Shown: positions 2,930 to 23,686 of the stretch, piece after piece
How positions within the stretch are numbered: position 1 is the first letter of the stretch
Layout of the letters: each line of letters starts with the position of its first letter
Assembly: GCA_015075455.1 (NCBI GenBank)
Contig: JABTUH010000016.1
Coordinates: 192,001-215,686 of the forward strand
Length of the DNA: 23,686 bases
Origin: Kofleriaceae bacterium
Lineage (GTDB): Bacteria; Myxococcota_A; Polyangia; Haliangiales; Haliangiaceae
Direction: 5' to 3'
The notes under the pieces: generated by a model
Database searches by the model: none
Seen by the model: only the letters and a program-made list of their open reading frames with translations
Told to the model about the DNA's origin: nothing
Made by a program: the position numbers and the translations under genes

Positions 2930-2953
2930 TCGGAGCGACCGAATGCCCGTTCG
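2919..2953. promoter_or_regulatory. Candidate TetR operator: 15-bp inverted repeat 'cgaacgagcattcgg-agcga-ccgaatgcccgttcg'
   Basis: Half-sites are reverse complements with 1 mismatch in 15, separated by 5 bp. Lies between/overlapping the divergent tetR start and the OMP start, with an RBS-like GGAG at 2932-2935. Confidence 0.5.
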
Positions 2954-4316: not shown

Positions 4317-5653
4317 ACCGTCCCGCCCGCCTCGCCCTCTGTGCGCTCCTCCTCGCCCCGGCGCTGGGCTGCGGCGACGGCAAGGCTGGCGGAAAGCCAC
4401 CGGCGCGCCGCGAGGTCAAGTTCCCGGTGGAGGTCCGCCCGGTCGAGCTGCGCGCCGTCGAGTACGGCGTCAACGCTCTGGGGACCATCGACGTGTTCGA
4501 GCGGGTCCAGGTCACCGCGCGGGTCGCCGGCGTCGTCGACGCGGTCAAGTTCACCGAGGGCGACGTCGTGACGCGGAACCAGGTCCTGGTCGCGATCGAT
4601 CCGGCGCGCTTCGCCCTCGCCGAGCGCCAGGCCCGAGCCGCCGTCGATCGCGCGCGCATCGCCGTCACCGACGCCGAGGCCGGCCTCGCCCGCCGCGAGT
4701 CGGCGGACCGCAGCAACCCCGGCCTCATCCCCGGCGAGGAGCTCGAGACCTGGCGCAACCGGGTGGCCGCGGCCAAGGCCGACCTCGCCGAGCGCGCCGT
4801 CGCCCGCGATCGGGCAGCCCTCGACCTCAAGGACGCCTACGTCCGCGCCCCCATCGCCGGCGAGATCGAGTCGCGCCAGGTCGCGACCGGCGCCTACGTC
4901 CAGCCCGGCACCGTGCTGGCCACGATGGTCCGCCGCGAGCCGCTGCGCCTGCGCTTCGACGTGCCCGAGGCCGAGGCCGCGCCGATGGCCAAGGGCGGGC
5001 TCGCCCGCTTCACGATCACCGGTCACGACCACGTCTTCACCGCCACGATCGTGCATGTGGCGGCCGCCGCCGAACCGACCTCGCGCATGGTCCGCGTCAC
5101 CGCCGAGATCGATGACCCCGACCGCGCCCGCCTGCGCGCCGGCGGGTTCGCCCAGGTCGTCGTTCCGGTGGGCGGCACCGCCCAGGCCCCGGTCATCCCC
5201 GAGACCGCGATCCGCCCCAGCGAGCGGGGCTTCCTCGCCTTCGTGGTCGAGGGCGAGGTCGCCCGCGAGCGCATCCTCGAGCTCGGCCTGCGCACCGCCG
5301 ACGGCCTGGTCGAGGTCCGCCGCGGCCTCGCCTCCGGCGAGCAGCTCGTCGTCCGCGGCGCCGAGGCGCTGCGCGAAGGCGCGCCGATCCGCCTCGGCGT
5401 CAAGCCGGGTCAGGGCGGCCCCGGCGGCCCAGGCGGCCCCGGCGGCCCTGGCGGCCGCGGCGGCAACGGCGGCCCCGGCGACAAGGGCGGCCCCGGCGGC
5501 AAGGGGCGGCGACACGCCGGGCCCGCCCGCGGCCGCGCCCGCCCCCACCGCGCCGGCGCCGGACGCCGACGCGCCCTCCCGACTCGCCGTCCCCGGGCCG
5601 CGCCCGCCGGCGCCGCACCCGCCCCCGCCGCGCCGCCCGGGGGGCCGCGGTGA
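4313..5653 (+). CDS. Efflux RND transporter periplasmic adaptor (membrane-fusion protein), probable lipoprotein, with Gly/Pro-rich C-terminal tail
   Basis: GTG at 4313 overlapping the upstream stop (GTGA). 'LALCALLLAPALGCGDGK' is a lipoprotein-type signal. Biotin-lipoyl/HlyD-like core 'VQVTARVAGVVDAVKFTEGDVVTRNQVLVAIDPARF...' is present. Tail 'GQGGPGGPGGPGGPGGRGGNGGPGDKGGPGGKG...' runs to the stop at 5651-5653. Confidence 0.8.
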   Translation: MNRPARLALCALLLAPALGCGDGKAGGKPPARREVKFPVEVRPVELRAVEYGVNALGTIDVFERVQVTARVAGVVDAVKFTEGDVVTRNQVLVAIDPARFALAERQARAAVDRARIAVTDAEAGLARRESADRSNPGLIPGEELETWRNRVAAAKADLAERAVARDRAALDLKDAYVRAPIAGEIESRQVATGAYVQPGTVLATMVRREPLRLRFDVPEAEAAPMAKGGLARFTITGHDHVFTATIVHVAAAAEPTSRMVRVTAEIDDPDRARLRAGGFAQVVVPVGGTAQAPVIPETAIRPSERGFLAFVVEGEVARERILELGLRTADGLVEVRRGLASGEQLVVRGAEALREGAPIRLGVKPGQGGPGGPGGPGGPGGRGGNGGPGDKGGPGGKGRRHAGPARGRARPHRAGAGRRRALPTRRPRAAPAGAAPAPAAPPGGPR

Positions 5654-8600
5654 ACATCACCGAGATCTGCATCCGGCGACCCGTCTTCGCCTGGATGATC
5701 ATGCTGGCGACCGTGCTGTTCGGCGTGGTCGCCATCGGCCGGGTCGGCGTCTCGCAGTACCCCGACGTCGACTTCCCGACGATCAGCGTCGGCGTCACCT
5801 GGGAGGGCGCCGCTCCCGACGTGATGGAGGCCGAGGTCATCGAGGTCATCGAGGAGGCGGTGATGCAGGTCGAGGGCGTGCGCGCGGTCAACTCCAGCGC
5901 GCGCCAGGGCCAGGCCTCGGTGACCATCGAGCTCGACATCGACCGCCCGGTCGATCTCGCCTTGCAGGACGTGCAGACCCGCGTCGCCCAGGCCCAGCGC
6001 CGGCTGCCGGTCGACATGGATCCGCCGACGATCTCCAAGACCAACCCCGAGGACCAGCCCATCATGTGGGTCGGCCTGTCGGGGCCCTACTCGCGCGCGC
6101 TCCTCACCGACACCGCCAAGTACGAGATCAAGGAGCGCCTGCAGACCCTGCCCGGCGTCGGCGAGGTCACGCTCGGCGGCTTCCTCGAGCGCAACGTCCG
6201 CATCTGGCTCGACGCCGCCGCCCTCGCCCGCCACAAGCTGACCCCCGCCGACGTCCAGGCCGCGCTCCAGCGCGAGCACGTCGAGCGCCCCGCCGGCCGC
6301 ATCGACGCCCGCGGCCGCGAGATCACCGTGCGCGTCCTGGGCGAGGCCTTCGACCTCGCCACGCTGCGCGACATCATCATCACCCGCATCGACGGCGCGC
6401 CCATCCGGCTCGGCGCCGTCGCCGTGGTCGAGGACGGCTTCGAGGACGAGCGACGCATCGCCCGCAGCCTCGGCTTCCCGGTCCAGGGCATCGGCATCCG
6501 CAAGCAGCGCGGCGCCAACGCGGTGGCGGTGGCCCAGGCGGTGCGCGCCGAGCTGGTCAAGATCAACGACCGCCTGCCCGAGGGCATGGTGGCCGCGGTC
6601 AACTTCGACTCGGCGCGCTTCATCGAGGACACCGTCCGCCACATCGAGATCGAGCTGATCATGGCGGTCCTGCTCACCGCGCTGGTGTGCTGGATGTTCC
6701 TGGGCTCGCTGTCGAGCACGCTCAACGTGATCCTGGCGATCCCGATGTCGTTACTCGGGACGATCGCCGCGATCTACTTCCTCGGCTTCACCCTCAACAC
6801 CTTCACCCTGCTCGCGCTGTCGCTCGCGGTCGGGATCGTCGTCGACGACGCCATCATGGTGATGGAGAACATCTACCGCCACGCCGAGATGGGCAAGCCC
6901 GCGGCGCAGGCCGCCCGCGAAGGCACGCGCGAGATCACCTTCGCCGCCCTGGCCGCCACCATCGCCGTCGTCGCCATCTTCGTGCCGGTCGTGTTCATCG
7001 AGGGCGTCACCGGCAAGTACTTCATGCAGTTCGGCGTGACCCTGTCGATCGCCGTGCTCCTGTCCTACGTCGAGGCCATCACCCTGGCCCCGGCCCGCTG
7101 CGCCCAGTTCCTGCGCGCCGGCCGCCACGACCGCATGTGGCTGGGGCAGCAGGTCGACCGCGGCTTCGCCACCCTGGCCCGCGGCTACCGCTGGCTGCTC
7201 ACCCGCGCCCTGCGCTGGTCGTGGGTCGTGCTGCTGGCCGCCGCCACCTCGATCGTCGGCCTCGTCCACGGCGTGCAGTCGCTGCCCAAGGAGATGGTGC
7301 CGGCCCAGGACCAGAGCCGGCTCATGGTCCGCATGTTCACCGAGGTCGGGACCTCGCTCGAGGAGACCGACCAGGTCTTCCGCCAGGCCGAGGAGTTCAT
7401 CAACGCCCAGCCCGAGGTCCGCCGCACGATGGCGATCGTCGGCGGCTTCGGCGGCGGCAACGTCAGCCAGGTGATCGTCATGACCTCGCTGGTGCCGCGC
7501 TCCGAGCGCCAGGTCAGCCAGGCCGAGTTCGCGACCCGGTTGCGGCGCAACCTCTCCGGCATCGCCGGCCTGCGGGTGGTGGTCCAGGACCTGTCGCAGT
7601 CGGGCTTCACCGCCAACCGCGGCTTCCCGGTCGAGGTCAGCGTGCGCGGCCCCGACTGGCCGACGCTGGTCGACGAGGCCCTGCGCCTGCGGGACGCGCT
7701 GGCCGAGAGCGGGATGGTGATGGACGTCGACACCGACTACGAGCTCGGCATGCCCGAGCTGCGGCTGCTCCCGCAGCGCGACCGCGCCGCCGATCTCGGC
7801 ATCTCCGTCGACGACATCGCCACGGCGGTCAACACGATGATCGGCGGCGTCCGCGCCGGCAAGTACAGCTCCGGCGGCCGCCGCGTCGACGTCCGGCTCA
7901 AGGTCCGCCGCGATCAGCGAGCCAGCCCCGACGCCCTGGGCCAGCTCTACCTGCGGGCGCGGACCGGCGAGATGATCCCGCTCTCGACCCTGGTCGAGCT
8001 GGAGGAGCGGCCGGCGCTGCAGTCGATCACCCGGCGCGACCGCGAGCGCGCCATCACGATCACCGCCAACGTCGCCCCCGGCTACTCCCAGCAGGACGCC
8101 CTGACCAAGGTCCGCGAGCTGAGCAAGACCCTGCCCCCCGGCTACAAGGCGGTGCTCGGCGGCGCCAGCGCCAGCTTCCTCGAGTCGTTCGCGGGGCTCG
8201 GCTTCGCCTTCCTGCTCGGCGTGGCCGTCGCCTACATGGTGCTCGGCTCGCAGTTCAACTCGTTCCTCCACCCGGTCACCGTGCTGACGATCCTGCCGCT
8301 GTCGCTGGTGGGCGCGGTGTTCGCCCTGCTCTACAGCGGCCAGACCCTCAACATCTTCTCGATGATCGGCCTCCTCCTCCTGGCCGGCATCGTCAAGAAG
8401 AACTCGATCATCCTCGTCGAGTACGCCAACAACGCCCGCGACCGCGGCCTCGACGCCCGCGCCGCGATGATCGAGGCCGGCCCCACCCGGCTGCGCCCCA
8501 TCCTGATGACCTCGATCGCGACCATGACCGCGGCGGTGCCCGCCGCCCTCGGCCTGGGCGAGGGCAGCGAGACCCGCACCCCGATGGCGATCGCCGTCAT

Positions 8601-8712
8601 CGGCGGCCTGGCGGTGTCGACCGCGCTCAGCCTGTTCGTGGTCCCCGCCTTCTACGTCGTCGCCGACGCCGTGCGCCGCCGCCTCGGCCTGGGCGGCTCG
8701 GCCGCGCCCTGA
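5650..8712 (+). CDS. RND efflux permease, AcrB/HAE1-like inner-membrane pump (1020 aa)
   Basis: Canonical N-terminus 'MNITEICIRRPVFAWMIMLATVLFGVVAIG' (GTG start overlapping the MFP stop as GTGA). Length ~1020 aa. Two large periplasmic loops plus 12-TM pattern, e.g. 'VVDDAIMVMENIYRH' (AcrB Asp407/408 equivalent). Confidence 0.9.
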   Translation: MNITEICIRRPVFAWMIMLATVLFGVVAIGRVGVSQYPDVDFPTISVGVTWEGAAPDVMEAEVIEVIEEAVMQVEGVRAVNSSARQGQASVTIELDIDRPVDLALQDVQTRVAQAQRRLPVDMDPPTISKTNPEDQPIMWVGLSGPYSRALLTDTAKYEIKERLQTLPGVGEVTLGGFLERNVRIWLDAAALARHKLTPADVQAALQREHVERPAGRIDARGREITVRVLGEAFDLATLRDIIITRIDGAPIRLGAVAVVEDGFEDERRIARSLGFPVQGIGIRKQRGANAVAVAQAVRAELVKINDRLPEGMVAAVNFDSARFIEDTVRHIEIELIMAVLLTALVCWMFLGSLSSTLNVILAIPMSLLGTIAAIYFLGFTLNTFTLLALSLAVGIVVDDAIMVMENIYRHAEMGKPAAQAAREGTREITFAALAATIAVVAIFVPVVFIEGVTGKYFMQFGVTLSIAVLLSYVEAITLAPARCAQFLRAGRHDRMWLGQQVDRGFATLARGYRWLLTRALRWSWVVLLAAATSIVGLVHGVQSLPKEMVPAQDQSRLMVRMFTEVGTSLEETDQVFRQAEEFINAQPEVRRTMAIVGGFGGGNVSQVIVMTSLVPRSERQVSQAEFATRLRRNLSGIAGLRVVVQDLSQSGFTANRGFPVEVSVRGPDWPTLVDEALRLRDALAESGMVMDVDTDYELGMPELRLLPQRDRAADLGISVDDIATAVNTMIGGVRAGKYSSGGRRVDVRLKVRRDQRASPDALGQLYLRARTGEMIPLSTLVELEERPALQSITRRDRERAITITANVAPGYSQQDALTKVRELSKTLPPGYKAVLGGASASFLESFAGLGFAFLLGVAVAYMVLGSQFNSFLHPVTVLTILPLSLVGAVFALLYSGQTLNIFSMIGLLLLAGIVKKNSIILVEYANNARDRGLDARAAMIEAGPTRLRPILMTSIATMTAAVPAALGLGEGSETRTPMAIAVIGGLAVSTALSLFVVPAFYVVADAVRRRLGLGGSAAP

Positions 8713-10550: not shown

Positions 10551-11048
10551 TCAGGCCTCCGCCAGGAACGACAGGTAGCGCTCGGGCAGGTCGTCGAACT
10601 CCATGGTCGCGCCGCACTGCGAGCAGGCGAACTGCGGGATCTCGTGCTTGCCGCCGGTCTGCGTGACGTCGACCAGCTTCTCCTCCTCCTGGCCGCAGCG
10701 GTCGCACACGTAGGGCGCGAAGAAGGAGCGGATGCGAGCGTTGCCGCGGAAGTTGTAGATCATGTTGAGCTGGGTCACGATCGCCGGCGAGCAGTGCGAG
10801 AACGACAGCTCGGTGACGTGGGGCAGATCGCGGACGAAGTTGACCCACTCGCGCACGCCGCAGCTGTTGATGCGGCGGACCTCGCCGAGCTGGAACGCCA
10901 CGGCGCCGCGCAGCCGCCGCCGCAGCTCGACGAAGTCGGCGTTCTCGTCGATCTCCCCCACGAACTCGACGGTGGTCAGGCCGGGGCGTTCGCGGATGCG
11001 CCACGACAGCGCGACCGGCTCGGGCCCCCGCACGTCCGCCGTCGCCAT
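10551..11048 (-). CDS. STAS-domain (anti-sigma-factor-antagonist-like) protein fused to C-terminal C4 zinc ribbon
   Basis: '[18 protein letters not shown]...[23 protein letters not shown]...SPAIVTQL' aligns by eye to SpoIIAA ('IRLTGELD...IVLNLEDLSFMDSSGLGVILG...SPAVKRL'), including the phospho-Ser position. C-terminal 'CDRCGQ-x24-CSQCG' zinc ribbon. ATG at 11046-11048, 4 nt after the upstream gene stop. Confidence 0.75.
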
Positions 11049-11052
11049 CGCC

Positions 11053-11976
11053 TCACTCCATCCGCTCGGGCGACTTCTCGAAGTGCTGGCGGACCTCGGT
11101 CCGCGCCGCCTCGTCGAGCGACGCCGGCTCGATCAGCACGTCCTTGACGTCGAAGCGCACCGGCTCGGGGCTGGCGAAGACGCCGCGCTTGACGACGCGG
11201 CCCATGCGCCCGGCGAGGCCCTGGTAGGCGGCCTTCGACGGCGAGGCCCAGCCCGAGATCGCGCCGCCGCCGCCGAAGCGGGTCACCGCGGTCCCGACCG
11301 AGGCGACCGTCGCCGCCGGCACCTTGGCGTTGACCTGGACGAAGGCGGGGTTGGGCACCGCGCCGGTGTCGAACAGCTTGGCCAGGCCCTTCTGCGAGCC
11401 GATGGGCGCGAACACCGCCTGCGCGCCCTTGTACGACGCGACCTCGGCGACCGCGGCCGTCAGGTCGGGCTTGCCGACCCGGCTGGCGAAGAAGCCGGCG
11501 TCGACCTCGGACTCGAGCATGGCGTTGTCGACGAAGCCGTTGTCGTTGCAGCCGGTCTGCACGAACGCCAGCTTCTTGCCCTCGAGCGCCTTCATGTCGC
11601 CGCCGGCGCCCGAGAACAGGGCGTAGGTGCGGGCGCCGCTGCCGCCGATCTGGGCGTTGGCCAGCAGGTTCCAGCCCAGGTTGGTGGCGTAGCACTGGGC
11701 GTCGACGATCGCGAAGTCGACGCCGGCGCTCTTGAGGGCGCCGAACGAGGCGAACGACTTGGCCTCGGTCTTGACCCCGGTCTGGGCCTCGATCGCCTTG
11801 GCCAGGCCCTGGACGTAGGACAGGCGGTCCTGGGCGGTGCCGAACTCGACCGACGGCGCGTAGATGCCGATCACCAGCTTGCCGGGCGCCGGCTGGGTGG
11901 TGCCGGGACGGACCACCAGGGCGACGGCCAGGGCGACCAGGCAGAGCGTCGGGATGATGATGCTGAGCTTGCGCAT
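11053..11976 (-). CDS. Periplasmic solute-binding protein, PhnD/SsuA-like (putative)
   Basis: Signal peptide '[22 protein letters not shown]'. AGGAG 8 nt upstream of ATG. Type-2 SBP-like pattern '[10 protein letters not shown]...[13 protein letters not shown]...[11 protein letters not shown]...VDAGF'. Family assignment is tentative. Confidence 0.55.
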
Positions 11977-14663: not shown

Positions 14664-16352
14664 TCAGAAGACCTTGCCGATGACGAGCGTGATGTCGTCC
14701 TTGCGGATGTTGTCGCCGAAGAAGTTGGCGGCGTCGGTCACGACGGCGTCGCGGATCTCCCCGGCCTCGAGCGCGGCCGCCCGCCGCACCGAGGCCCGGA
14801 AGCGCTTCTCGCCGTACTCCTCGCCGCCGCTCGACTCGCACTCGACGATGCCGTCCGTGTACCAGACCAGGATGTCGCCGGGCATGAGCTCGGTGGTCTT
14901 GACCTCGTACTTCGACTCCTTGAGGTCGCCGAGCCGGTTGCCGCGGATCATCAGCGAGCCGAACTCGCCCTGCCCGCCCTCCGAGGTCCGGTACAGGTAG
15001 GGGAAGTTGTGGCCGGCGTTGGCGTACGTGATCGTGCGCCGGCGGGTGTCGATGACCGAGGCGAAGCAGGTCATCACGAACTTGCGCTTGGCGCTCTGGT
15101 AGATCGCCGAGTTCATGATCTCGAGCAGCTTGGCCGGGTCGACGTTGTCGCCGTTGACGGCGCGGGCGACGTCGCACGCCGCCTTGGCCGCCGCCGTGAT
15201 CATCGCCGACGGCACGCCGTGGCCGGTGACGTCGCCGATCACGACCAGGACCTTGTCGCCGACCATGTCGTGCCACGTCCACCAGTCGCCGCCGCACTGC
15301 GACGCCGGCTGGAAGTAGCCGGCGAAGCGCAGCGTGCCCTTGTCGACCGGATCGTGGGTCGGCACCAGGGTCTCCTGGATCGTCCGCGCCACCTCGAGCT
15401 CCTTCTCCATCGTCGCCTTCTCGGCGGTCTGCTGGAGCAGCACGAGGAGCTGGTCGGCCATGAAGTTGAAGTTCTCGCCGAGCAGGCCGAGCTCGTCGGT
15501 CGACTTGACCTCGACGCGGGCGGCCAGATCACCGCGGGCGATCTGGTCGGCCTTCCACGCCAGGAGCTTGATGGGCTTGGAGATCTGGACGCCCTGGAAG
15601 ATCGCGAGCAGGGTGCCGATGAGCACGAACAGCGCGCCGAAGGCGCCGGTGCGTAGCGCGGCCTTGCGCGCCTCCTCGTCCTTGAGCTTGGCGCTCTCGC
15701 GGGCGAAGGTGTCGACCGGCGACAGGTCGTAGCCGAAGACCACGTAGCCCTGACGGTTCTCGCCCGGGTCGTCGGCCGCGGCGGCGGCCGGGCTCCAGCC
15801 GACCTGCTCGCCCGAGAACACCGGGTAGGCGAACAACAGCAGCTTGCCGTCCTCGCCGGCGGTCCAGTCGAGCGAGACGCTGATCTCGGGCTCGGTCGCG
15901 GCGGCGCGCCGCTTCCACTCCTCCAGCACCTTGGCCCACGACGCGTGCTTGACCCGCTCGCCCTCGACCTCGCCGGCGGCGTCGCAGCGGTCGTCCTTGC
16001 GCCGGCAGTACTTGATGAGGTTCTGGACGCGACCGACGACGTAGACCAGCTTGAGCTCGGCGTCGTGCTTGAGGGTGTCGTCGACGATCTCCTTGATCTC
16101 GACGTCCTGGGTGTTGATGAAGTACGAGCGCAGGCCCTGGCCGAAGAAGATCGTGTTGGTCTCGCCCTTGCTCTCGAGCTGCTTGCGGTACTCGGTGATC
16201 TTGTCCTTGGCCGCGCGATCGTAGGCCTCGCGGATGTTGCACGCGTTCAGCAGACCGAAGCCCACCACCGTGAGGAGGATCAGGAACGTGGTGGTCAAGA
16301 TCATCTTGACCGAGATGCTCAAGCCGCCGCGCTTTGCCATTGGCCATGCCAT
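14664..16352 (-). CDS. Membrane-bound RsbU/SpoIIE-type PP2C serine phosphatase with periplasmic sensor region and HAMP domain
   Basis: TM1 '[18 protein letters not shown]', ~200-aa extracytoplasmic region, TM2 '[17 protein letters not shown]'. HAMP-like '[45 protein letters not shown]'. PP2C motifs '[10 protein letters not shown]', '[15 protein letters not shown]', 'NAGHNFPYL', 'VWYTDGIVE'. Confidence 0.85.
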
Positions 16353-16522: not shown

Positions 16523-17089
16523 ATGCCGGGGATGGAGTCCCACCCCGCGCTGACCCAGTTCCTGACCGAGTTCAAGCGCGTGGCCAGCGCCATCGTCGAC
16601 AGCTACTTCATCGTCGACACCGAGCGCCGCATCGTCGACTTCAACCGCGCGTTCTTCGCGATGCTGCCGCGGCAGGTGGCGCGCGGCCTCAAGGGCAAGC
16701 GCTGCTTCGAGGTCATCGAGCTCAACATCTGCCGCAGCGAGTGCATCGCCCAGCAGTGCTGGACCGACAACCGACACGTCCGGCTCGACGAGATCAGCGG
16801 CAAGGTGCTGGGCGAGCCCGACGCCAAGGAGCTGCGCTTCATCCTGTCGGCGGTGCCGATCACCGACGAGAGCGGCCAGCACGTCGGCGCCCTCGAGATC
16901 CAGCGCAACGTCACCGACGAGGCGGTGGTCCAGGTCAAGTACCAGGAGATGCTCGAGAACGAGGCCCGCGAGCGCGAGCGCCTCGCCAACCAGATCCGCG
17001 CCCGCACCAAGGAGCTGCTCGAGACCAACCAGCTCCTGCTCAAGACCCAGAAGGAGCTCCTGTCCTACAAGAAGGGCCTCTCGGCCTGA
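16523..17089 (+). CDS. Stand-alone PAS-like sensor domain with 4-Cys motif plus C-terminal coiled coil; kinase-less paralog of the histidine-kinase N-terminus
   Basis: '[22 protein letters not shown]' (C-x8-C-x3-C-x4-C). Collinear similarity to histidine-kinase residues ~20-190 ('[16 protein letters not shown]' vs '[16 protein letters not shown]', '[10 protein letters not shown]' vs '[10 protein letters not shown]', '[14 protein letters not shown]' vs '[14 protein letters not shown]'). Ends just before where the histidine-kinase H-box would start. Start at ATG 16523 or 16532. Confidence 0.75.
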
Positions 17090-17111
17090 GCGCCGGGTGC
17101 CCCCCCCGGGG

Positions 17112-18059
17112 CTACTTGCCGCTGAAGAGCAGGAACGCCAGCACGCCGATGGCCGCGAGCAGCACGACCACGAGCACGTAGATCACGGCGCTCGACTTGG
17201 GCTGGGTCAGCGCCGGGCGCTCGGCGGGGACCGGCGTGGAGAAGCTGCCGCTGCCGGGGTTGGTGCCGGGCGAGGTGAAGTTGCCCGGCCGGCTGCCCGG
17301 GTTGGTGCCCTGGAACGAGCCCACCGGGCGCATGCCGGGGTGGGTGGTGGTCGTCACCGGCGTCATCGACGGCCGGCTGCCCGGCTTGGCGGTGATCGAC
17401 GGCGAGCTGCCGCTGGGCCGCGAGATCGACGGCAAGGACGGCACGCTGGGCAACGACGACACCGACGAGCTGTGCAGGCTCGAGGTGCCGGTGCGCGAGC
17501 GGATCTTGGACTTCTCGCCGTTGTCACCGGAGGCGAACTCCTTGATGACGCCGTTGATCTTGTCGGGCTCGGCGATCTTCTTCTGGTTCGACAGGAACGC
17601 GAAGTACGAGTCGGCCATGTCGTCGAAGTCCATGACCAGATCGCACTCGTCGCAGCGACAGGTCGGCGGCTCGTGCGGCCCCGAGCCCATGTCGGCCGCC
17701 TCGACGAGCAGCACCTTCTCCTCGTCGCACTCGGGACAGAAGTACGGGACGTAGAAGCTCTTGACCACGCCCGACCCGGTGAAGTTGTTGACGAGGTTGA
17801 TCTGGGCGACGATCGCCGGCGAGCACTCGACGAGCACCGCGCGGGTCGCCTGGGTCTCGAGCTTGCCGAGCCAGTTGACCCAGTCGCGCACGCCACACGA
17901 GTTGATGCGCTCGATCTCGCCGAGATCGATCACCGCCGTACCCGCCGGGATCTTGTCGGTCAGCGCGGTGAGCTCGTTGTCCTCGTCGATGACACCGCTC
18001 AGCTTGACGTAGCTGACGTCGTCGCGGTGGTGGACCGACGCCTGAAACTTCTGGCTCAT
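17112..18059 (-). CDS. STAS-domain plus C4 zinc-ribbon protein with Ser/Pro/Gly/Thr-rich linker and C-terminal transmembrane anchor
   Basis: Paralog of 10551..11048: '[23 protein letters not shown]...[15 protein letters not shown]...YFCPECDEE...[15 protein letters not shown]'. Then ~110 aa low-complexity ('[29 protein letters not shown]...[20 protein letters not shown]') and '[22 protein letters not shown]' TM. GGAGA 5 nt upstream of ATG 18057-18059. Confidence 0.8.
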
Positions 18060-18197
18060 TGCGTCTCCGTCGACACGTAATTCACGTAGCCGTGATTACA
18101 CCTGTACCCTAGAACCTTCAACTCGCAAAGCATATCGTGATCGCGCCAGCGGGATCCACTCCATGGACGTCGATCGTGGCCCGTCCCCCGCCTCGTG
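18060..18197. promoter_or_regulatory. Lower-GC intergenic region with imperfect inverted repeat 'gtaattcacgtagccgtgattac'; probable promoter/regulatory region for the STAS-ZnR-TM gene
   Basis: Local GC visibly lower (~50%) than the ~72% background. Contains an RBS and the palindromic element. No sigma-factor consensus assigned. Confidence 0.35.
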
Positions 18198-21100
18198 TCA
18201 CGCCTGGTTCGGGGCAGCGGTGAGGTAGTCGCGTAGGCGCTGGTAGTCGTCGGACAGATAGAAGCGCACCAGGTCGGCCCCGCCCAGCACCGCGCCCAGG
18301 GCCACGGTGGCGTCGTGAGACAGGAGCATCTCGCCGGTCAGGCGCGCGATCATCCAGGTGGCGGCGGCGAAGTCGTCGCAGGCGAGGAGCCCGCCGCGCT
18401 TGGCGGCGCCCAGCATGCCGTCGATCCAGGCGTCGCCGTCGACGTCGCGGCCCCAGTTCTGGTGGCGCTCGATGACCTTCTGCGCCCGCTTGGACAGCCC
18501 CTTCACGAACTCGTTGGTCGGCGCCGGCCGCTCGCCCTCGGGCAGCAGCAGCGACTTCATGAAGTTGCCGAGCTCGGATCGCTGGCGACGGCCGAGGTGG
18601 TGGAGGAAGGCGTACCCGCCCCGCAGCGCCTCGAAGGCCCAGCCGAGGAGGAAGCGGCGCGGCCCGTCGCCCTCGCCGACCAGCGACCGGTCGATCACCA
18701 CCAGGCGGCGGGGCGCCGCCACCAGCGCCACCAGGCCGGGCACGCGCTCGCCCACGAAGACCTCGGCCTCGATGGCGTCGAGCCGGGCGATGTCGGCGAC
18801 CGCGACCTTGAGCCCGGGGTCGTCCATGCCCTGTACCGGGATCAGGTTCTCCCCCAGCATCGGCGGCGGGTACAGGCCGCCCAGCTCGGCCGCGGCCGCC
18901 GCCAGCACCTCGCCGAACGGATCGCGCGCCGCCGTCGTCACCAGCAGCCGCATCCGCATCTCGTCGTCGAGCGCCCGCCGCATCGGGTGGTAGGGCAACG
19001 ACGCCCGCACCTTGGCGGCGGCGCCGCGATCGGACTCCTCGGCGAAGCCGAGCTGCTCCATCACCGTCAGCGCCCGCGCCGCCCGCTCCGGCTCGCCGAC
19101 GCGGGTGTAGTACGACGACAGGAGGCGGTAGGCCATCGCGTTGTGGATGTCGCGATCCACGACCTTGCGCAGCTCCGAGATCGCCTTGCCCGGGTCGTCG
19201 ATGGCGTAGATCTCGGCCAGCGCCACACGATCGGGCGGGCTGTCGTCGACGCCCAGGATGCCGCGGTAGGCCTCGATCGCCGCCGGCCGGTCGCCGGACG
19301 CGAGGAGGATGCGGGCCAGGCCGCGCTGCAGCGGCACCGCCGCCGGCGGCCCGCCCTTCTCCATCGCGGCGTGGGCGGCGTCGATGAGCAGGCCCTCGGC
19401 GCCGCGCTGGTCGCCGGCCTCGGCGGCGCGCCGCGCCAGGGCCAGGGCCGGCGGCGCGTAGCCCGGATCGTACTCGCTGGCCCGGCGGTACTGCGAGGTC
19501 GCGCCGCGAGGATCGCCCGAGGTCTCGGTGATGCGCCCGCGGTAGTAGTAGTAGCGGGCCAGGTTCTCGGGCGAGATCGCCGAGCCCGGCGCCGCCGCCA
19601 GCTCGATCACGCGATCGATCGCCGCCCGGGCGTCGGCGTGGCGCCCCAGCAGGTAGTGCTCCTGGGCCAGGCGGTAGTAGGCCTCCTCGTGGATCGGGTC
19701 GATGCGGATGACCTCGCGCAGGACCGAGATCGCGCGGTGGGGCTCCATCTCGCAGTCGGCGTGGATCTCGGCCTGCCGCATGAGCGCGCCGACGCGCACC
19801 GCCTGCGACACGTCGCTGTGGTTCAGGAACTTGACGATGGCGTCGACCGCGTGGCTCCACCGCCGCATGTTGAGGTGGAGCGTGATCATCGCCGACAGCA
19901 CCTCGAAGTCGTCGGGCGCCAGCGCCACCGCCTCGGCGTAGAGCTGCTGGGCCTGATCGAGGTCGCCCTCGCGCTCCTTCATGCCGGCCTGGGCGACGCG
20001 GACCCGGGCCAGGAAGGGCCCGGCGTCGTCGCGCTTCTTGTAGAGCTTGTCGAGCTCGCGGTAGATCGCGTCGAAGTCCCAGGCCTCGGGGTGCTTGCGC
20101 TGCAGGTCGAGCAGGCCGTCGAGGGCCGACAGGTTGTTGGGCTTGATCTCGAGGGCGACGATCAGGCTCTCGGCGGCGCCGCGGGCGTCGCCGGTCATGT
20201 GGGCGACCACGCCGCGCCGGCGATAGAACTCGCTGCGGGTGTTGGGATCGCCCTCGCGCATGGCCTTGACCGCCAGCGCCTGGGCCAGGGGCAGCGCCCG
20301 CTGCCACTCCCCGGCGTCGAAGTAGTGCTCGAACAGGGCCTGGTTGGCGGGCAGGCACTCGGGATCGACGGCGAGCGCGCTCTCGTAGTAGTGCATCGCC
20401 CGGTCGGGCTGGCCGAGGCGCGACTCGTAGATGCGGCCGATCTGGGCGAAGACGCCGGCCCGCTCCTTGTCGTCCTGCCACAGCTTGACCTCGAGCTCGA
20501 GGGTCTGGATGACCCGCGGCCAGTCCTCGCGCCGGCGGTAGAGGTCGCGCAGGCCGTGGACCGCCGGCAGGCACGAGGGCGAGGTCTTGATCGCCGCGTC
20601 GTAGTAGCGGATCGCGTCCTCCTCCTTGCCGAACTTGGCCTCCATCACCGAGCCGCACTTGAAGTAGAGCAGCGCCTTGAGGTTGCGATCGGTGGTGACC
20701 CGGATCTGGCGGCGGGTGACGTCGACGAACTCGGCCCACTGCTCCGTCGACTCGTAGATGCGGCCCAGGGCCTCGAGCGCCTCCTTGTTGGCGGGCGCGA
20801 TCTCGAGGATGCGCTGGTAGTGCTCGACCGCGCGCGACTCGTCGCGCAGGCCCTCCTCGCTGATCTGGGCGATGCGCTTGTGCAGGGTGGTCGCGGCGTC
20901 GCCGGCGGGGGCGGTGGCCAGGCGGTGGCGCAGGACCTCGACCAGCTTGCCCCAGTCGTGGTTGCGCTCGTACCAGCGCTCGAGCGCGTCGAGGGCCTCG
21001 ACGTCGGACGGATCGATGTCGAGGATGTGCTGGTAGAGGCGGGCGGCCTCGCCGAAGTCGCGCATCTTGGCGGCGGCGACCCGGGCGGCGCGGCGCAGCG

Positions 21101-23686
21101 ACTCGAGGCGGCGCTCGTCGTCGCGGGTCAGGCCGGCCCGCTTCTCGTAGACCCCGATGAGCCCGCTCCAGTCGCTCTTCTGCGAGAAGATCGACTCCAG
21201 GAACTTCACGCTGGTGTCGTTCTCGGGATCGATCTCGACGACCTTGACGTAGGACTGGGCCGCGGCGTCGAGCTCCCCCAGGTACTGGAGCTGGACCTGG
21301 CCGCGGCGGGCGTAGAGGTCGCCCAGGCGGTAGGCCCGCGACGCGCCGCTCTCCACCAGGTCGATCGCGCTCTGGTAGAGCTTCATCGCCGACGCCCAGC
21401 GCTCGTGCTTGTAGCAGAGCTTCTCGAGCGAGGTGAAGACCTCGCGGTTGGCGGGGTCGGCGAGGAACGACGCGGTGAAGGCGGCGATCGCGCCGTCGGG
21501 GTCGCCGCGGTTCTGCTTGACCTGGGCGATGCGCCCGTAGAGCTGGGCCCGCTCCAGCTTGTCGATCGTCGAGTCGGCGCGGGCCTCCAGCACCCGCATC
21601 AGATCCTTGTCGCGGCCGAGCCGCTCGTACAGCCGCTCGAGGGCCTCGAGCGCAGGCACGTACTGGGGGCGGCGCTCGAGGATCGACTCGTAGGCGAGCG
21701 CGGCGTCGGCGGGCTTGGCCAGCTTCTCCTCGCGGAGCTGGCCGAGCCGGGTCAGGATCGCGAGCTGGGCGTCGACGTTGCCCGCCGGCGCCGCCGCCAG
21801 CTCGCGCTCGAGCGCGCCGGCCAGGTCGGCCCAGCGCTCGGTGCGCTCGAGCAGCCGGGTCAGGTCGCGGTGGCTGTCGGTGCTGGCGCTGCCCTGGGCC
21901 GCGAGCTGGTGGAAGCGGATCGCGGTCTCGACGTCGCCGAGCTTGTCCTCGGCCATGCGCGCCAGCGACGCCGCCAGCCGCGGCCGCTCGGCGGCCGGGG
22001 TCAGCTCGATCTCGGCCTGCCGGATCTCGGCCAGCTCGGTCCACTCGCCCAGGCGCTCGAGGGCCTCGGCCAGGACCCGCAGGTTGGCCAGGGTCCGCGG
22101 CGCGCGCCGGTAGGCGATCGCCAGCTCGCGCCAGCGATCGTGGCCGCGGGCGACGCGGTCGACCCCGGCCAGGGCGGCGGCGTCGGCGGCGTCGATCGAG
22201 AGCGCGTCGTCGTAGGCGGCGAGCGCCCGCTCGGGGTCGCGCCCGTCCTCGTACAGCTTGCCGGCCTCGAGCTGGATGGCGAGGCGCCGCGACGGCTCGA
22301 CGCCGCGGGTCAGCTCCTGCTCGAGCAGCGCCAGCAGGCGATCGTTGCGGCGGGCCCGGCGGTGGAGCTGCTGCAGGGCGCGCAGCGGCTCGACGGCGCG
22401 ATCGTCGGCGCGCGCGGCGCGCTCGTAGGCGGCCAGGGCCGCGGCGTCGTCGTTGCGCCGGGTCTCCTCGAGCTGGCCGATCTCCAGGTACATCTGGGCC
22501 TGGCGGCGGACGTCCTTGACCAGCTCGGCGACGCGGGCCCGTAGCTCGATCGCCTTGTCCCATTGCCGGCCGTGCTCGCACAGCCGCGCCAGCTCGTAGG
22601 TGACGTCGGGGTCGTCGGGCCGCAGGGTCTGGGCCTGCTCGAGCACGGCGCGGGCGCGCCGGGTGTCGCTGATGTGCTCGGCCAGGATCTTGCCGTGCTC
22701 GCGCAGGAGCACCAGCTTGAGCTCCTCGGAGGTGCACAGCGCGGTGAGATCGGACAGCGTGCTCGACAGCTCGCGCCAGCGCTCGGCCTTGCGGTAGATC
22801 GCGGCCAGCGCGCCCTTGGCCGCGGGATCCTGCGGCGCCTGGCGCGAGGCCTGGAGAAGGAGCTCCTCCGCCTCCAGCGGCCGGGCGCGCGCGAGCTCGA
22901 GGGCGCCGGCGGCGAACAGGAGCGCGGTGGCGGCGCGGCGGTCGCGGGCCGACTGCGCCGCCGCCCGGTAGATCTCGCCGAGCTGGGCGCGGTCGCGCTG
23001 GCGACGGGCGAGGCGCGCGAGGTGGTCGAGCTCGCTCTGGCGCGCCGGACCGGGAGCGCGCTCCGACGACGCGACCTTGAGCAGCTCGAGGGCGCGGGCG
23101 ACGTCGCCCAGCCGGGCCTCGATGACCAGCGCCGCCCGCCGGTTGCCGGCCCGGGCGCCGTCCTTGGCCTGGGCCAGGAGGTGGCCGACCAGGGCCTCGG
23201 GCTCGCCGGCGCGCAGGCGCTCGAGCGTGAGCAGGCCGCTGGCCGTCCGGGCACCGGACGTCGCGAGCTGGGCCAGCTCGCCGGCCATGGCCAGCCCGTG
23301 GGCGTCGGCGATCTCGAGGGCGCGCCAGGCGTGGGCCGCGGACAGGCCGCCGGCGGCCTGCGACTCGGCGAGGCCACGGCGCGCGGTCACGGCGTCGCCC
23401 CAGCGGCTGGCGCGGTGGCCGACCCGGGCCATGGCCAGCCGCGCCAGCACCGGGCCGTAGCCCTCGTCGCCGGCGGCCGAGGCGTAGCCGGAGACCGCGG
23501 CGCCCAGGACGCCGGCGGCGAGCCGGGCGTCGGCGAGGGCGTGGCGGGTGGCGGCCTCCTCGCGGCGGGCCCCGGCGTCGGCCTCGAGCAGCTCGAGGCG
23601 GCGCTCGTGCAGCGCGGCCACGGCCGCGCCGTCGGCGCCCCCGGGCAGGCGCTGGGCGGCGTCGAGGGCGAGGTCGATCGCGCGCA
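18198..23686 (-). CDS. Giant TPR-repeat protein (>1829 aa), N-terminus beyond window edge
   Basis: Frame open from window end to TGA at 18198-18200. Dozens of TPR-like helical pairs ('AIELRARVAELVKDVRRQAQMYLEIGQL', 'ALAAYERAARADDRAVEPLRALQQLH', 'AIRYYDAAIKTSPSCLPAVHGLRDLY', etc.). Acidic/aromatic C-terminal region. Confidence 0.75.
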   Translation of the reverse strand, partial: RAIDLALDAAQRLPGGADGAAVAALHERRLELLEADAGARREEAATRHALADARLAAGVLGAAVSGYASAAGDEGYGPVLARLAMARVGHRASRWGDAVTARRGLAESQAAGGLSAAHAWRALEIADAHGLAMAGELAQLATSGARTASGLLTLERLRAGEPEALVGHLLAQAKDGARAGNRRAALVIEARLGDVARALELLKVASSERAPGPARQSELDHLARLARRQRDRAQLGEIYRAAAQSARDRRAATALLFAAGALELARARPLEAEELLLQASRQAPQDPAAKGALAAIYRKAERWRELSSTLSDLTALCTSEELKLVLLREHGKILAEHISDTRRARAVLEQAQTLRPDDPDVTYELARLCEHGRQWDKAIELRARVAELVKDVRRQAQMYLEIGQLEETRRNDDAAALAAYERAARADDRAVEPLRALQQLHRRARRNDRLLALLEQELTRGVEPSRRLAIQLEAGKLYEDGRDPERALAAYDDALSIDAADAAALAGVDRVARGHDRWRELAIAYRRAPRTLANLRVLAEALERLGEWTELAEIRQAEIELTPAAERPRLAASLARMAEDKLGDVETAIRFHQLAAQGSASTDSHRDLTRLLERTERWADLAGALERELAAAPAGNVDAQLAILTRLGQLREEKLAKPADAALAYESILERRPQYVPALEALERLYERLGRDKDLMRVLEARADSTIDKLERAQLYGRIAQVKQNRGDPDGAIAAFTASFLADPANREVFTSLEKLCYKHERWASAMKLYQSAIDLVESGASRAYRLGDLYARRGQVQLQYLGELDAAAQSYVKVVEIDPENDTSVKFLESIFSQKSDWSGLIGVYEKRAGLTRDDERRLESLRRAARVAAAKMRDFGEAARLYQHILDIDPSDVEALDALERWYERNHDWGKLVEVLRHRLATAPAGDAATTLHKRIAQISEEGLRDESRAVEHYQRILEIAPANKEALEALGRIYESTEQWAEFVDVTRRQIRVTTDRNLKALLYFKCGSVMEAKFGKEEDAIRYYDAAIKTSPSCLPAVHGLRDLYRRREDWPRVIQTLELEVKLWQDDKERAGVFAQIGRIYESRLGQPDRAMHYYESALAVDPECLPANQALFEHYFDAGEWQRALPLAQALAVKAMREGDPNTRSEFYRRRGVVAHMTGDARGAAESLIVALEIKPNNLSALDGLLDLQRKHPEAWDFDAIYRELDKLYKKRDDAGPFLARVRVAQAGMKEREGDLDQAQQLYAEAVALAPDDFEVLSAMITLHLNMRRWSHAVDAIVKFLNHSDVSQAVRVGALMRQAEIHADCEMEPHRAISVLREVIRIDPIHEEAYYRLAQEHYLLGRHADARAAIDRVIELAAAPGSAISPENLARYYYYRGRITETSGDPRGATSQYRRASEYDPGYAPPALALARRAAEAGDQRGAEGLLIDAAHAAMEKGGPPAAVPLQRGLARILLASGDRPAAIEAYRGILGVDDSPPDRVALAEIYAIDDPGKAISELRKVVDRDIHNAMAYRLLSSYYTRVGEPERAARALTVMEQLGFAEESDRGAAAKVRASLPYHPMRRALDDEMRMRLLVTTAARDPFGEVLAAAAAELGGLYPPPMLGENLIPVQGMDDPGLKVAVADIARLDAIEAEVFVGERVPGLVALVAAPRRLVVIDRSLVGEGDGPRRFLLGWAFEALRGGYAFLHHLGRRQRSELGNFMKSLLLPEGERPAPTNEFVKGLSKRAQKVIERHQNWGRDVDGDAWIDGMLGAAKRGGLLACDDFAAATWMIARLTGEMLLSHDATVALGAVLGGADLVRFYLSDDYQRLRDYLTAAPNQA

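Follow-up and report, generated by a model that had tools for sequence, protein, structure and literature searches.

A tail-anchored STAS-zinc ribbon protein from a Kofleriaceae bacterium is a probable membrane-tethered partner-switching protein

Partner-switching modules are usually pictured as a soluble trio (a STAS antagonist, an RsbW-type kinase, and a PP2C phosphatase) that controls a sigma factor. What is the role of a protein that begins with a STAS domain and ends with a membrane helix? Such a protein is encoded in a stretch of 23,686 nucleotides from a Kofleriaceae bacterium (contig JABTUH010000016.1 of assembly GCA_015075455.1), which we refer to as the window. The complete coding sequence (17112..18059, minus strand) specifies 315 amino acids plus a stop codon, and a ribosome-binding site, GGAG, lies at 18065..18068 on the same strand, 5 nt 5' of the ATG at 18059. 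Contigs in 204 blocks of the collection carry a gene for the identical protein. A scan for promoters and terminators around the gene gave nothing informative. The original prediction, which was made from the sequence of the window, described the product as a STAS domain, a zinc ribbon, a disordered linker, and a single C-terminal transmembrane (TM) helix. This order of domains is borne out by an AlphaFold2 (AF2) model, by composition, and by conservation across homologs. The gene fits a small switch, made of a STAS domain and a zinc ribbon (STAS-ZnR), that would sit at the inner face of the membrane by way of a floppy linker and a C-terminal anchor. Our preferred reading is that the protein is probably a tail-anchored, cytoplasm-facing STAS phospho-switch and acts as the membrane-tethered "antagonist" of a partner-switching module.

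The STAS domain comprises residues 1-100 (17760..18059, minus strand), in the order b1-b2-a1-b3-a2-b4-a3. These residues adopt the STAS fold (a sheet of four to five strands with flanking helices) with high confidence. Sequence models recognize the domain poorly: it scores 14.6 bits against STAS_2 (PF13466), whose curated cut-off is 29.2, and 18.1 against TIGR00377, whose curated cut-off is 53.45. That the domain falls below both cut-offs is a point against a role in partner switching. TIGR00377 was also the only model reported by the NCBIfam scan of the protein, and neither Pfam nor NCBIfam has a model that captures the STAS-ZnR family. When the full-length protein was searched against the sequences in the PDB, we obtained only a chance match, and a profile of the STAS domain plus the zinc ribbon returned a list swamped by eukaryotic C2H2 fingers. 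A profile of the STAS domain alone was needed to obtain matches to STAS proteins, and this family profile reaches the solved STAS proteins 4hyl (E = 5.6e-5) and TM1442 (E = 0.002). The fold matches of the STAS model include SiaC, MlaB (E ~ 2e-3), and the STAS domains of SLC26 proteins.

The residue of most interest in this domain is Ser54 (codon at 17898..17900, minus strand), which lies in the invariant motif R-I-N-S-C-G-V-R. In the AF2 model, the helix a2 (residues 54-69) begins at Ser54. Ser54 aligns with Ser59 of TM1442 (in "YMDSAG") and with "YMSSAG" of 4hyl, and it is unchanged throughout our three alignments (A1, A2, and A3). Ser59 of TM1442 and Ser58 of SpoIIAA are phosphorylation sites, so Ser54 is predicted to be a phosphorylatable serine exactly where SpoIIAA, RsbV, and TM1442 carry theirs. 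The long forms of the family have a second, degenerate STAS domain, which provides an internal comparison. Among the best family representatives, 139 of 150 first domains have serine at this position, while in the degenerate second domains the serine is replaced by proline, aspartate, or glutamate. A serine that is kept in the first domains and lost in the degenerate ones points to a functional site more than to a demand of the fold. On the other side, a serine that caps the N-terminus of a helix may be conserved for structural reasons. The original prediction did not mention the conserved phospho-serine position, the membrane phosphatase in the window, or the kinase-fold gene just past the end of the window (the last two are described below).

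Residues 101-160 (17580..17759, minus strand) form the zinc ribbon and its C-terminal helix. The pattern is C108-x2-C111 and C136-x2-C139, followed by invariant F145-D-D, Y152, and F155-L156. All four cysteines are invariant in 57 aligned sequences, and they are about 95% conserved among 150 family representatives. The AF2 model has a beta-hairpin at 101-107/114-120, and we predict a zinc ribbon from the two conserved CxxC knuckles on beta-hairpins. Generic zinc-ribbon models, run on a soluble paralog, gave only scores below threshold, and no solved STAS structure extends over this part of the protein.

After a short helix (residues 165-176), a disordered linker rich in Ser, Pro, Gly, and Thr runs to residue 288 (17196..17579, minus strand, including the helix). 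The pLDDT is below 55 across residues 182-286, and these four amino acids make up 63% of residues 176-290. The linker is about 125 amino acids long; in 43 tail-anchored representatives of the family, the median length is 95 amino acids and the composition is 50% Ser, Pro, Gly, Thr, or Ala. The repeats that had been noticed in the linker are real ("TNPGS" three times and "PGSRP" twice), but the stretch that contains them is poorly conserved. Conservation is instead concentrated in a short linear motif at residues 202-212 (17424..17456, minus strand). In 42 tail-anchored homologs, each of its 11 positions except L203 shows at least 95% conservation, whereas the remainder of the linker is variable. 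It is the sole strongly conserved motif of the linker and is limited to a close clade (8 of 150 representatives). We infer that this motif, which contains PSVPSLPSI, is a candidate docking peptide.

The protein ends with a TM helix at residues 289-312 (17124..17195, minus strand) and a predicted extracytoplasmic tail of just three residues, S-G-K (17115..17123, minus strand). The mean Kyte-Doolittle hydropathy of this helix over a 19-residue window is 3.04, and its Hessa-type summed insertion energy is about -4.6 kcal/mol, compared with +9.9 or more elsewhere in the protein. Topology prediction had been proposed as a check, and residues 289-312 are the only segment with a negative insertion energy. 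The AF2 model also has a helix there (289-313, pLDDT 89-96). The protein is thus predicted to be tail-anchored: its one TM helix lies at 289-312 of 315, and there is no other TM segment. We found no signal peptide at the N-terminus, which is hydrophilic. Among the 120 best matches, nearly all full-length homologs finish with an equivalent helix plus 0-6 residues, and across the homologs the tails after the helix have 0-8 residues. The mean net charge of the 43 representatives is +1.16 before the TM helix versus +0.35 after it. Also, the four cysteines suit a reducing compartment, so a cytoplasm-facing STAS-ZnR domain fits. These features, together with the cytoplasmic location of the candidate partners, are consistent with a membrane-inserted protein whose N-terminal domain is cytoplasmic, as had been proposed.

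Could the linker and the helix be a misreading? A frameshift or sequencing artefact would make them spurious, but codon-position GC is continuous across the open reading frame (the GC content at third positions is 0.95-1.0 in the N-terminal domain, the linker, and the TM part, all in frame), and the anchor is kept in about 100 orthologs and in at least 43 distant clusters. Alternatively, the helix could be a sorting signal (MYXO-CTERM, PEP-CTERM, or LPXTG) that is cleaved from a secreted protein, as a Ser/Pro/Gly/Thr-rich spacer before a C-terminal hydrophobic helix is also found in sorted surface proteins. The protein has neither an N-terminal signal peptide nor a match to an NCBIfam sorting model, its helix is followed by "SGK" instead of a basic cluster, and its zinc ribbon suits the cytoplasm. 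We therefore consider both of these explanations to be effectively refuted. A link to defense systems was also rejected, as the sole PADLOC match was a weak one to PD-T4-6 that fell on the low-complexity linker and TM helix.

The tail anchor is common in this family. It is present in at least 43 of the best 150 cluster representatives (at 50% identity) of a family with over 4,000 clusters. Other architectures in the family join the STAS-ZnR domain to a Hanks kinase, a FIST domain, or a PDZ domain. A scan of genomes with very specific peptide patterns found only Kofleriaceae/Haliangiales-type metagenome-assembled genomes. Our literature searches on STAS domains with zinc ribbons, tail-anchored STAS proteins, and membrane-anchored antagonists found nothing relevant. 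So the claim that this topology is unusual for a STAS protein stands against the literature that we searched, but within the STAS-ZnR family the tail anchor is common and ancient. STAS-ZnR is a large myxobacterial family, and most likely its members are the phosphorylated partners in kinase/phosphatase partner-switching circuits.

If so, a phosphatase and a kinase should be encoded near these genes. A membrane phosphatase of the HAMP-SpoIIE/PP2C type is encoded in the window at 14664..16352 (minus strand; SpoIIE, E = 2.8e-42; HAMP, E = 7e-14). It has two TM segments that flank an extracytoplasmic domain of about 200 amino acids. In two distant genomes (loci L090 and L088), a SpoIIE-type gene adjoins, or is one gene away from, a tail-anchored STAS-ZnR gene. 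We predict that the phosphatase acts on STAS-ZnR proteins. Which ones is less clear-cut: its operon also encodes a soluble STAS-ZnR paralog of 165 amino acids (10551..11048, minus strand), which has its own conserved family of orthologs. The shared core that had been noted between this paralog and the tail-anchored protein is confirmed (39% identity over 150 amino acids, E = 4e-39). The paralog could be the phosphatase's only substrate in the source genome, which is a point against the partner switch, and the phosphatase operon is separable from the tail-anchored gene: there is an 8-kb insertion between them in L005, and the operon is within 8 kb in only 27 of 80 loci. The gene upstream of this paralog (11053..11976, 307 amino acids) was considered as a second RsbW-like kinase and rejected, as neither BLASTP nor hhalign found similarity; its product, which carries a signal peptide, is the counterpart of a periplasmic binding protein of the Phosphonate-bd type.

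The putative kinase is encoded outside of the window. In 48 of 80 loci (nearly all of those with enough flanking sequence), a gene for a protein with a Rec-like domain and an RsbW/SpoIIAB fold lies upstream of the adjacent TPR gene and is divergent from it. HATPase_c_2 is matched by 17 of 18 members of this group with scores that are below Pfam's thresholds, and their profile had no sequence match in the PDB, so the group was placed by fold search alone. The AF2 model (pTM 0.83) matches LvrC, SpoIIAB, RsbW, UsfX, and SiaB. In the source clade, the 6.3-kb TPR gene separates this gene from the STAS gene, and we did not find it beside the STAS gene in L088-L090. In L091, however, only 3 nt separate a homolog (E = 7.6e-27) from the long-form STAS-ZnR gene downstream of it. 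In L088, a 305-aa gene was considered as kinase-like and a 164-aa gene as a second STAS-ZnR protein; hhalign was negative for both, and the latter is a PAS homolog.

The third conserved neighbor, at 16523..17089 (plus strand), encodes a small PAS protein with a C-terminal coiled coil (it matches PAS_9 and PAS_4). Its four cysteines are invariant in 43 of 43 homologs. The gene is convergent with the STAS-ZnR gene here and is present in 37 of 80 loci. In two distant genomes (L088 and L089), a PAS homolog is directly downstream of the tail-anchored STAS-ZnR gene and on the same strand, and this synteny favors the link to the PAS gene that the original prediction had suggested.

Because the PP2C phosphatase, the four-cysteine PAS protein, and the putative RsbW-fold kinase are conserved neighbors, we favor a membrane-localized partner-switching module. 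In the proposed mechanism, the RsbW-fold protein would phosphorylate Ser54 and the membrane PP2C would take the phosphate off again. The activity of the phosphatase would be gated by its extracytoplasmic/HAMP input, and perhaps by the PAS protein. The unphosphorylated STAS-ZnR domain would then bind a partner at the membrane. This partner could be the RsbW-fold protein itself, as the classical scheme has it, or an effector, following the SiaC type. Both the tail anchor and the linker would serve to hold the switch near the membrane phosphatase and to localize whatever the switch binds.

The most consistent neighbor, however, suggests another reading. A gene for a TPR protein of about 2,100 amino acids (18198..23686, minus strand; it has TPR family matches, and its reading frame is open to the end of the window, which cuts it) is directly upstream of the STAS-ZnR gene, in the same orientation, in 77 of 80 genome loci, and likewise in L088 and L089. 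This linkage is the tightest and most universal that we found. TPR domains bind extended peptides, and PSVPSLPSI resembles a docking motif. The protein might thus be an adaptor that does not depend on phosphorylation: the STAS-ZnR domain and the linker motif would tether or organize the TPR protein or another partner at the inner membrane, Ser54 would be structural, and the kinase and phosphatase would serve the soluble paralog or other proteins. The STAS domains of MlaB and SLC26, which are among the fold matches, act without phosphorylation, and a soluble STAS-ZnR protein is already encoded in the PP2C operon. But a purely structural role fits poorly with a serine that is strictly kept in first domains and lost in degenerate ones. 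Also, the tail-anchored members that are directly beside SpoIIE-type genes in L088 and L090 have no soluble paralog in the locus, and in L091 an RsbW-fold gene lies right next to that of a family member. On balance, we think that the adaptor explanation is unlikely. The TPR protein also has a place in the partner switch: it is the best candidate for the partner or scaffold and, speculatively, it might dock on the PSVPSLPSI peptide.

Is the partner switch directed at a sigma factor? The original prediction held that a C-terminal tether is characteristic of membrane-anchored anti-sigma or anti-anti-sigma components. To our knowledge, no classical membrane anti-sigma factor is a STAS protein with a tail anchor. 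As a classical anti-anti-sigma factor, the tethered STAS domain would capture an anti-sigma factor of the RsbW type at the membrane and thereby release a dedicated sigma factor that is encoded elsewhere in the genome. The fold and the position of the serine are as in SpoIIAA and RsbV, the nearby kinase-like protein has the RsbW/SpoIIAB fold and is of the LvrC (Rec-anti-sigma) type, and JGI names many of the homologs "anti-anti-sigma regulatory factor." But we found no sigma-factor domain among the called genes in any of the neighborhoods that we read (about 20 kb each, in L001-L007 and L088-L091), so that the claim about sigma-factor components is not supported and the anti-anti-sigma label is only partly so. 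Co-inheritance with the giant TPR protein would also be left unexplained, and many partner-switching modules outside of Firmicutes have outputs other than sigma factors, such as SiaABCD and SypA (PMC8256260). Overall, a classical anti-anti-sigma factor seems quite improbable. We also found no diguanylate cyclase near the STAS-ZnR gene.

The fold match to MlaB raises one more explanation, in which the protein would be a STAS accessory subunit of an ABC transporter that is encoded a few genes upstream. Loci L001-L004 and L089 do have an ABC_tran ATPase gene and a gene for 370-416 amino acids upstream of the TPR gene. However, the transporter genes are missing from the equivalent position in L005, L088, and L090, and the ABC_tran gene is never adjacent, as the kinase-like and TPR genes intervene. 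Nor are MlaB-type STAS domains the closest by fold or by profile. We consider this explanation to be very improbable.

How does the proposed membrane partner switch compare to known systems? As in SpoIIAA, RsbV, and TM1442 (PF01740/PF13466, TIGR00377), helix a2 starts with a serine, and the genes nearby include one for a SpoIIE-family PP2C and, in 48 of 80 loci, one for a candidate kinase with the RsbW/SpoIIAB fold. Unlike those proteins, STAS-ZnR adds a zinc ribbon after a3, the long disordered linker, and the C-terminal anchor; it falls below the cut-offs of the sequence models, has no sigma factor nearby, and is paired with a giant TPR protein. The SiaABCD system of Pseudomonas aeruginosa comprises a membrane HAMP-PP2C (SiaA), a kinase (SiaB), a STAS-like protein (SiaC), and an effector (SiaD), and the unphosphorylated form of SiaC binds an effector that is not a sigma factor. 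It shares with this locus a membrane HAMP-PP2C and a small STAS-like protein, and SiaB and SiaC are among the fold matches of the kinase-like and STAS models, respectively. In contrast, SiaC is soluble and has no zinc ribbon, and the kinase-like protein here has an N-terminal Rec-like domain. In SLC26/SulP proteins, the STAS domain follows a transport domain with 14 TM segments, whereas here there is no transport domain and the single helix serves only as an anchor. Bacterial tail-anchored proteins include ElaB and YqjD of E. coli and Ser/Thr kinases of actinobacteria and myxobacteria. These also lack a signal peptide, have their one TM helix at the very C-terminus, and keep the functional domain in the cytoplasm, but none is known to have a STAS domain, and we found no tail-anchored STAS protein in the literature that we searched.

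The kinase-like neighbor (not STAS-ZnR itself) has LvrC of Leptospira (PDB 9qih) as its best structural match (Foldseek, E = 4.6e-8). LvrC combines a Rec domain with a Bergerat-fold anti-sigma domain (PMC13269768), and the neighbor shares this two-domain arrangement (Rec plus RsbW-like). Unlike LvrC, for which no STAS partner has been described, the neighbor has a Rec-like domain that keeps an Asp at the end of b3; as read from the alignment, however, neither the acidic pair that should follow b1 nor the conserved Lys is present, so the domain may be a pseudo-receiver.

A more specific proposal would be that STAS-ZnR is a membrane branch of partner switching with a non-transcriptional output, in which phosphorylation of Ser54 would control whether the tethered domain, with the PSVPSLPSI peptide, captures the TPR protein at the inner membrane. 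We are doubtful of this full version. If it is true, then a kinase/phosphatase pair switches the localization or the assembly of a giant TPR scaffold, and the Rec-like kinase domain and the four-cysteine PAS protein are the inputs to that one switch for two-component and redox or metal signals.

There is no new principle here, as the fold, the phosphorylation site, and the types of partners are already known. What goes beyond the picture of a soluble trio is a STAS domain that has a zinc ribbon and a permanent membrane tether, has a membrane phosphatase encoded nearby, and is inherited along with a giant TPR protein. Characterizing STAS-ZnR would offer an approachable system in which to see how a membrane tether affects a phospho-switch. 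In myxobacteria other than Myxococcus, STAS proteins and SpoIIE phosphatases have been noted to be greatly expanded in number, so far without an explanation (PMC2887360). With the STAS-ZnR family defined, thousands of myxobacterial proteins now called "hypothetical" would gain a domain model, which would help to explain this expansion.

The gene at 17112..18059 (-) encodes a 315-aa protein with a STAS domain, a predicted zinc ribbon (together, STAS-ZnR), and a predicted membrane anchor at its C terminus. A GGAG ribosome-binding site lies 5 nt upstream of the ATG. GC3 is 0.95 in the N-domain, 0.99 in the linker, and 1.00 in the transmembrane (TM) part, so coding constraint acts on a single frame throughout the ORF. 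The original prediction held that the STAS-ZnR core is shared with the 165-aa product of 10551..11048 (-), and we found 39% identity over 150 residues (E = 4e-39); the motifs that it quoted are indeed common to both proteins. It also proposed a disordered linker and a single C-terminal TM helix after the core, and AlphaFold2 pLDDT, hydropathy, and insertion energy agree with this architecture. In an AlphaFold2 model built from 57 homologs, pLDDT is about 90 for residues 1–160, under 55 for residues 182–286, and 89–96 for a confident helix at 289–313. The hydrophobic segment has a mean Kyte-Doolittle value of 3.04. Over 19-residue windows on a Hessa-type scale, the summed insertion energy is negative only there (about -4.6 kcal/mol, versus at least +9.9 elsewhere). 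Only S-G-K follows the TM helix.

STAS sequence models match the protein below threshold only (PF13466, E = 0.038; TIGR00377, E = 0.0018), which means that it fails their curated cut-offs. Judging from the model, the STAS fold of the N-domain is nevertheless unambiguous: in the PDB, Foldseek ranks TM1442, SpoIIAA, 4hyl (an antagonist from Haliangium ochraceum), and RsbV highest (E = 3e-5 to 4e-4; TM-score 0.6–0.7 on the target). Similarly, a profile built from the STAS domains alone of 38 diverse family members matched 4hyl (E = 5.6e-5) and TM1442 (E = 0.002). In the alignments from this profile, the invariant Ser54 (R-I-N-S-C-G) aligns with Ser59 of TM1442 (YMDSAG), which is the residue phosphorylated there and the equivalent of SpoIIAA Ser58. 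Helix a2 of the model starts at residue 54, as in SpoIIAA. All of the fold matches span only about 100 residues. The segment after the STAS domain, which is absent from every solved STAS structure, has two CxxC pairs, C108/C111 and C136/C139, both of them invariant. It also has a beta-hairpin and a helix with the invariant pattern F-D-D...Y...F-L; its sequence pattern and predicted structure identify it as a predicted zinc ribbon.

We ran an exhaustive profile search against 1.84 billion cluster representatives, which gave 4,271 clusters at E ≤ 1e-3 (3,356 of them below 1e-10). The best 150 representatives include 52 soluble proteins of about 160 aa, 43 tail-anchored ones of 240–360 aa (the TM helix is near-terminal in 6 more), and 27 of about 700–750 aa with a central TM helix. 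These long forms have a tandem pair of STAS-ZnR units and, in some, periplasmic PDZ domains. Several of them (P0249, P0262, P0297, and others) have a C-terminal region that ends in an N(I/V)WD...DDP motif. Rarer members are fusions to Hanks kinases and FIST domains; three such proteins (P0344, P0357, and P0377) join the STAS-ZnR unit to FIST sensor domains and Hanks-type Ser/Thr kinase domains, with TM helices next.

Across the 150 representatives, 139 first domains have Ser at position 54 (35/35 long forms, 54/63 mid-length forms, and 50/52 short forms). The long forms mostly have Pro, Asp, or Glu at this position in their degenerate second domain, and the four Cys are about 95% conserved in first and second domains alike. 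The Ser is thus retained in the domains expected to act as a switch and missing from those that seem purely structural, which argues for a functional site.

The tail anchor recurs across the family and is not peculiar to this gene. With the N-domain alone as the query, we obtained 1,342 proteins and inspected the tails of the best 120, which come from Kofleriaceae/Haliangiales-type MAGs and have N-domains that are 84–98% identical. Practically every full-length protein among these 120 has this TM helix at its C terminus, with 0–6 residues after it. Linkers of the 43 tail-anchored representatives have a median of 95 aa, of which 50% are S/P/G/T/A, and 0–8 residues lie beyond the helix. Their net charge is +1.16 before the helix and +0.35 after it, which is weakly consistent with an N-in orientation. 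Because the anchor is conserved across the family and GC3 indicates constraint throughout, we rejected a frameshift or sequencing artefact, which the original prediction had named as a way that it could be wrong. We also rejected a sorting signal, as the tail-anchored protein has no signal peptide and no match to the NCBIfam sorting-signal models. Within the variable linker, 10 of the 11 positions of a peptide starting at S202 (202–212; all but L203) are at least 95% conserved in 42 homologs. This peptide is limited to a close clade (8 of 150 representatives) and looks like a candidate docking motif.

Neighbors were counted within 8 kb in 80 species-level genome loci. A giant TPR gene of roughly 2,100 aa (18198 to beyond 23686, -) is directly upstream of the STAS-ZnR gene in 77 of the 80. 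Its ORF stays open to the window end, which cuts it; full-length orthologs have 2,081–2,189 aa, and the last roughly 450 residues of the protein have no Pfam match. One contig labelled as an Acidobacteriota MAG (JBLMXA010000535.1) has this TPR gene upstream of a full-length copy that is 89% identical to the present protein; the contig is probably mis-binned and myxobacterial.

A small PAS gene (16523..17089, +), convergent with the STAS-ZnR gene, is found in 37/80 loci. Its protein has a C-terminal coiled coil and four Cys (C61, C70, C74, and C79) that are invariant in 43/43 homologs from the fetched loci, and it may be a metal-, Fe-S-, or redox-sensing PAS domain. The two stop codons are only 22 bp apart (17090..17111); this spacer is a C4G8 run (CCCCGGGGGGGG), and a simple scan reported no terminator there.

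A HAMP-SpoIIE/PP2C phosphatase (14664..16352, -), present in 27/80 loci, is encoded in the next minus-strand operon. Its TM segments (about 17–37 and 237–257) enclose an extracytoplasmic domain of about 200 aa without a Pfam match; the ortholog at a distant locus (L088) has sCache_3_2 in its place. The operon also encodes an 883-aa TPR protein, a 307-aa binding protein (11053..11976), the soluble STAS-ZnR paralog, a PAS histidine kinase, and a single-domain response regulator. No Pfam family matches the 307-aa protein, which begins with a signal peptide or anchor. The gene at this operon position in L088 encodes a Phosphonate-bd (PF12974) periplasmic binding protein, so the 307-aa protein may serve the phosphatase operon as a ligand sensor. 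Downstream of this operon are genes for an OEP outer-membrane efflux protein (2451..4316, +) and an AcrB-family RND pump (5650..8712, +); an RND pump adjoins at another locus (L005) too.

Beyond the TPR gene, a divergent gene of about 300 aa is present in 48/80 loci, nearly all of those with a full 8-kb flank. Here it lies just past the window end (P0396, at 2358–3296 (-) of the fetched locus L001) and is kinase-like: 17 of 18 family members have sub-threshold HATPase_c_2 matches, and an N-box-like DELLMNA and a G2-like GAGLGLY are invariant. In its AlphaFold2 model (pTM 0.83), the C-terminal half matches LvrC, SpoIIAB, RsbW, UsfX, and SiaB, and the N-terminal half matches receiver domains. 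The best structural match overall is Leptospira LvrC, a recently described Rec + Bergerat-fold anti-sigma factor (PMC13269768). The Rec-like domain may be a pseudo-receiver, since it keeps an Asp at the end of b3 but seemingly has neither the acidic pair nor the Lys.

Loci of four distant relatives strengthen these links. L088 has, on one strand, a giant TPR gene, a tail-anchored STAS-ZnR gene, a PAS homolog, sCache-HAMP-SpoIIE, TPR, and a binding protein; L089 has the order TPR, tail-anchored STAS-ZnR, PAS; in L090, the gene immediately after the tail-anchored one encodes HAMP-SpoIIE; and in L091, a long-form STAS-ZnR gene is preceded, at a distance of 3 nt, by the gene of a Rec-RsbW-fold homolog (E = 7.6e-27). 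We found no sigma-factor gene in any neighborhood examined, including these four; a distant sigma factor is a possible output.

These components make up the set expected of a partner-switching module (a STAS domain with the canonical Ser, an RsbW-fold kinase or binder, and a SpoIIE-type PP2C) in a new architecture. We think it fairly probable that the protein is a phospho-switch. The Rec-RsbW-fold protein would phosphorylate Ser54, the membrane PP2C would remove the phosphate, and the unphosphorylated STAS-ZnR domain would bind a partner at the membrane. The anchor and long linker would keep the switch near the phosphatase and localise the bound partner. The giant, always-adjacent TPR protein is the best candidate for the output, perhaps via the linker peptide. 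We consider the main rival, an adaptor for the TPR protein that does not depend on phosphorylation, unlikely.

The tail-anchored protein resembles SpoIIAA/RsbV and SiaC in fold, phospho-site position, and types of partner, but differs in having a zinc ribbon, a tail anchor, and no sigma factor nearby. According to a 2010 survey, STAS proteins and SpoIIE phosphatases, with Hanks kinase fusions among them, show an unexplained expansion in Sorangium (PMC2887360). Neither Pfam nor NCBIfam yielded a model for the STAS-ZnR unit, and we found no description of STAS-zinc-ribbon or tail-anchored STAS proteins in the literature. Rather than a new principle, the STAS-ZnR proteins, a large and uncharacterised family, offer a clear hypothesis to test.
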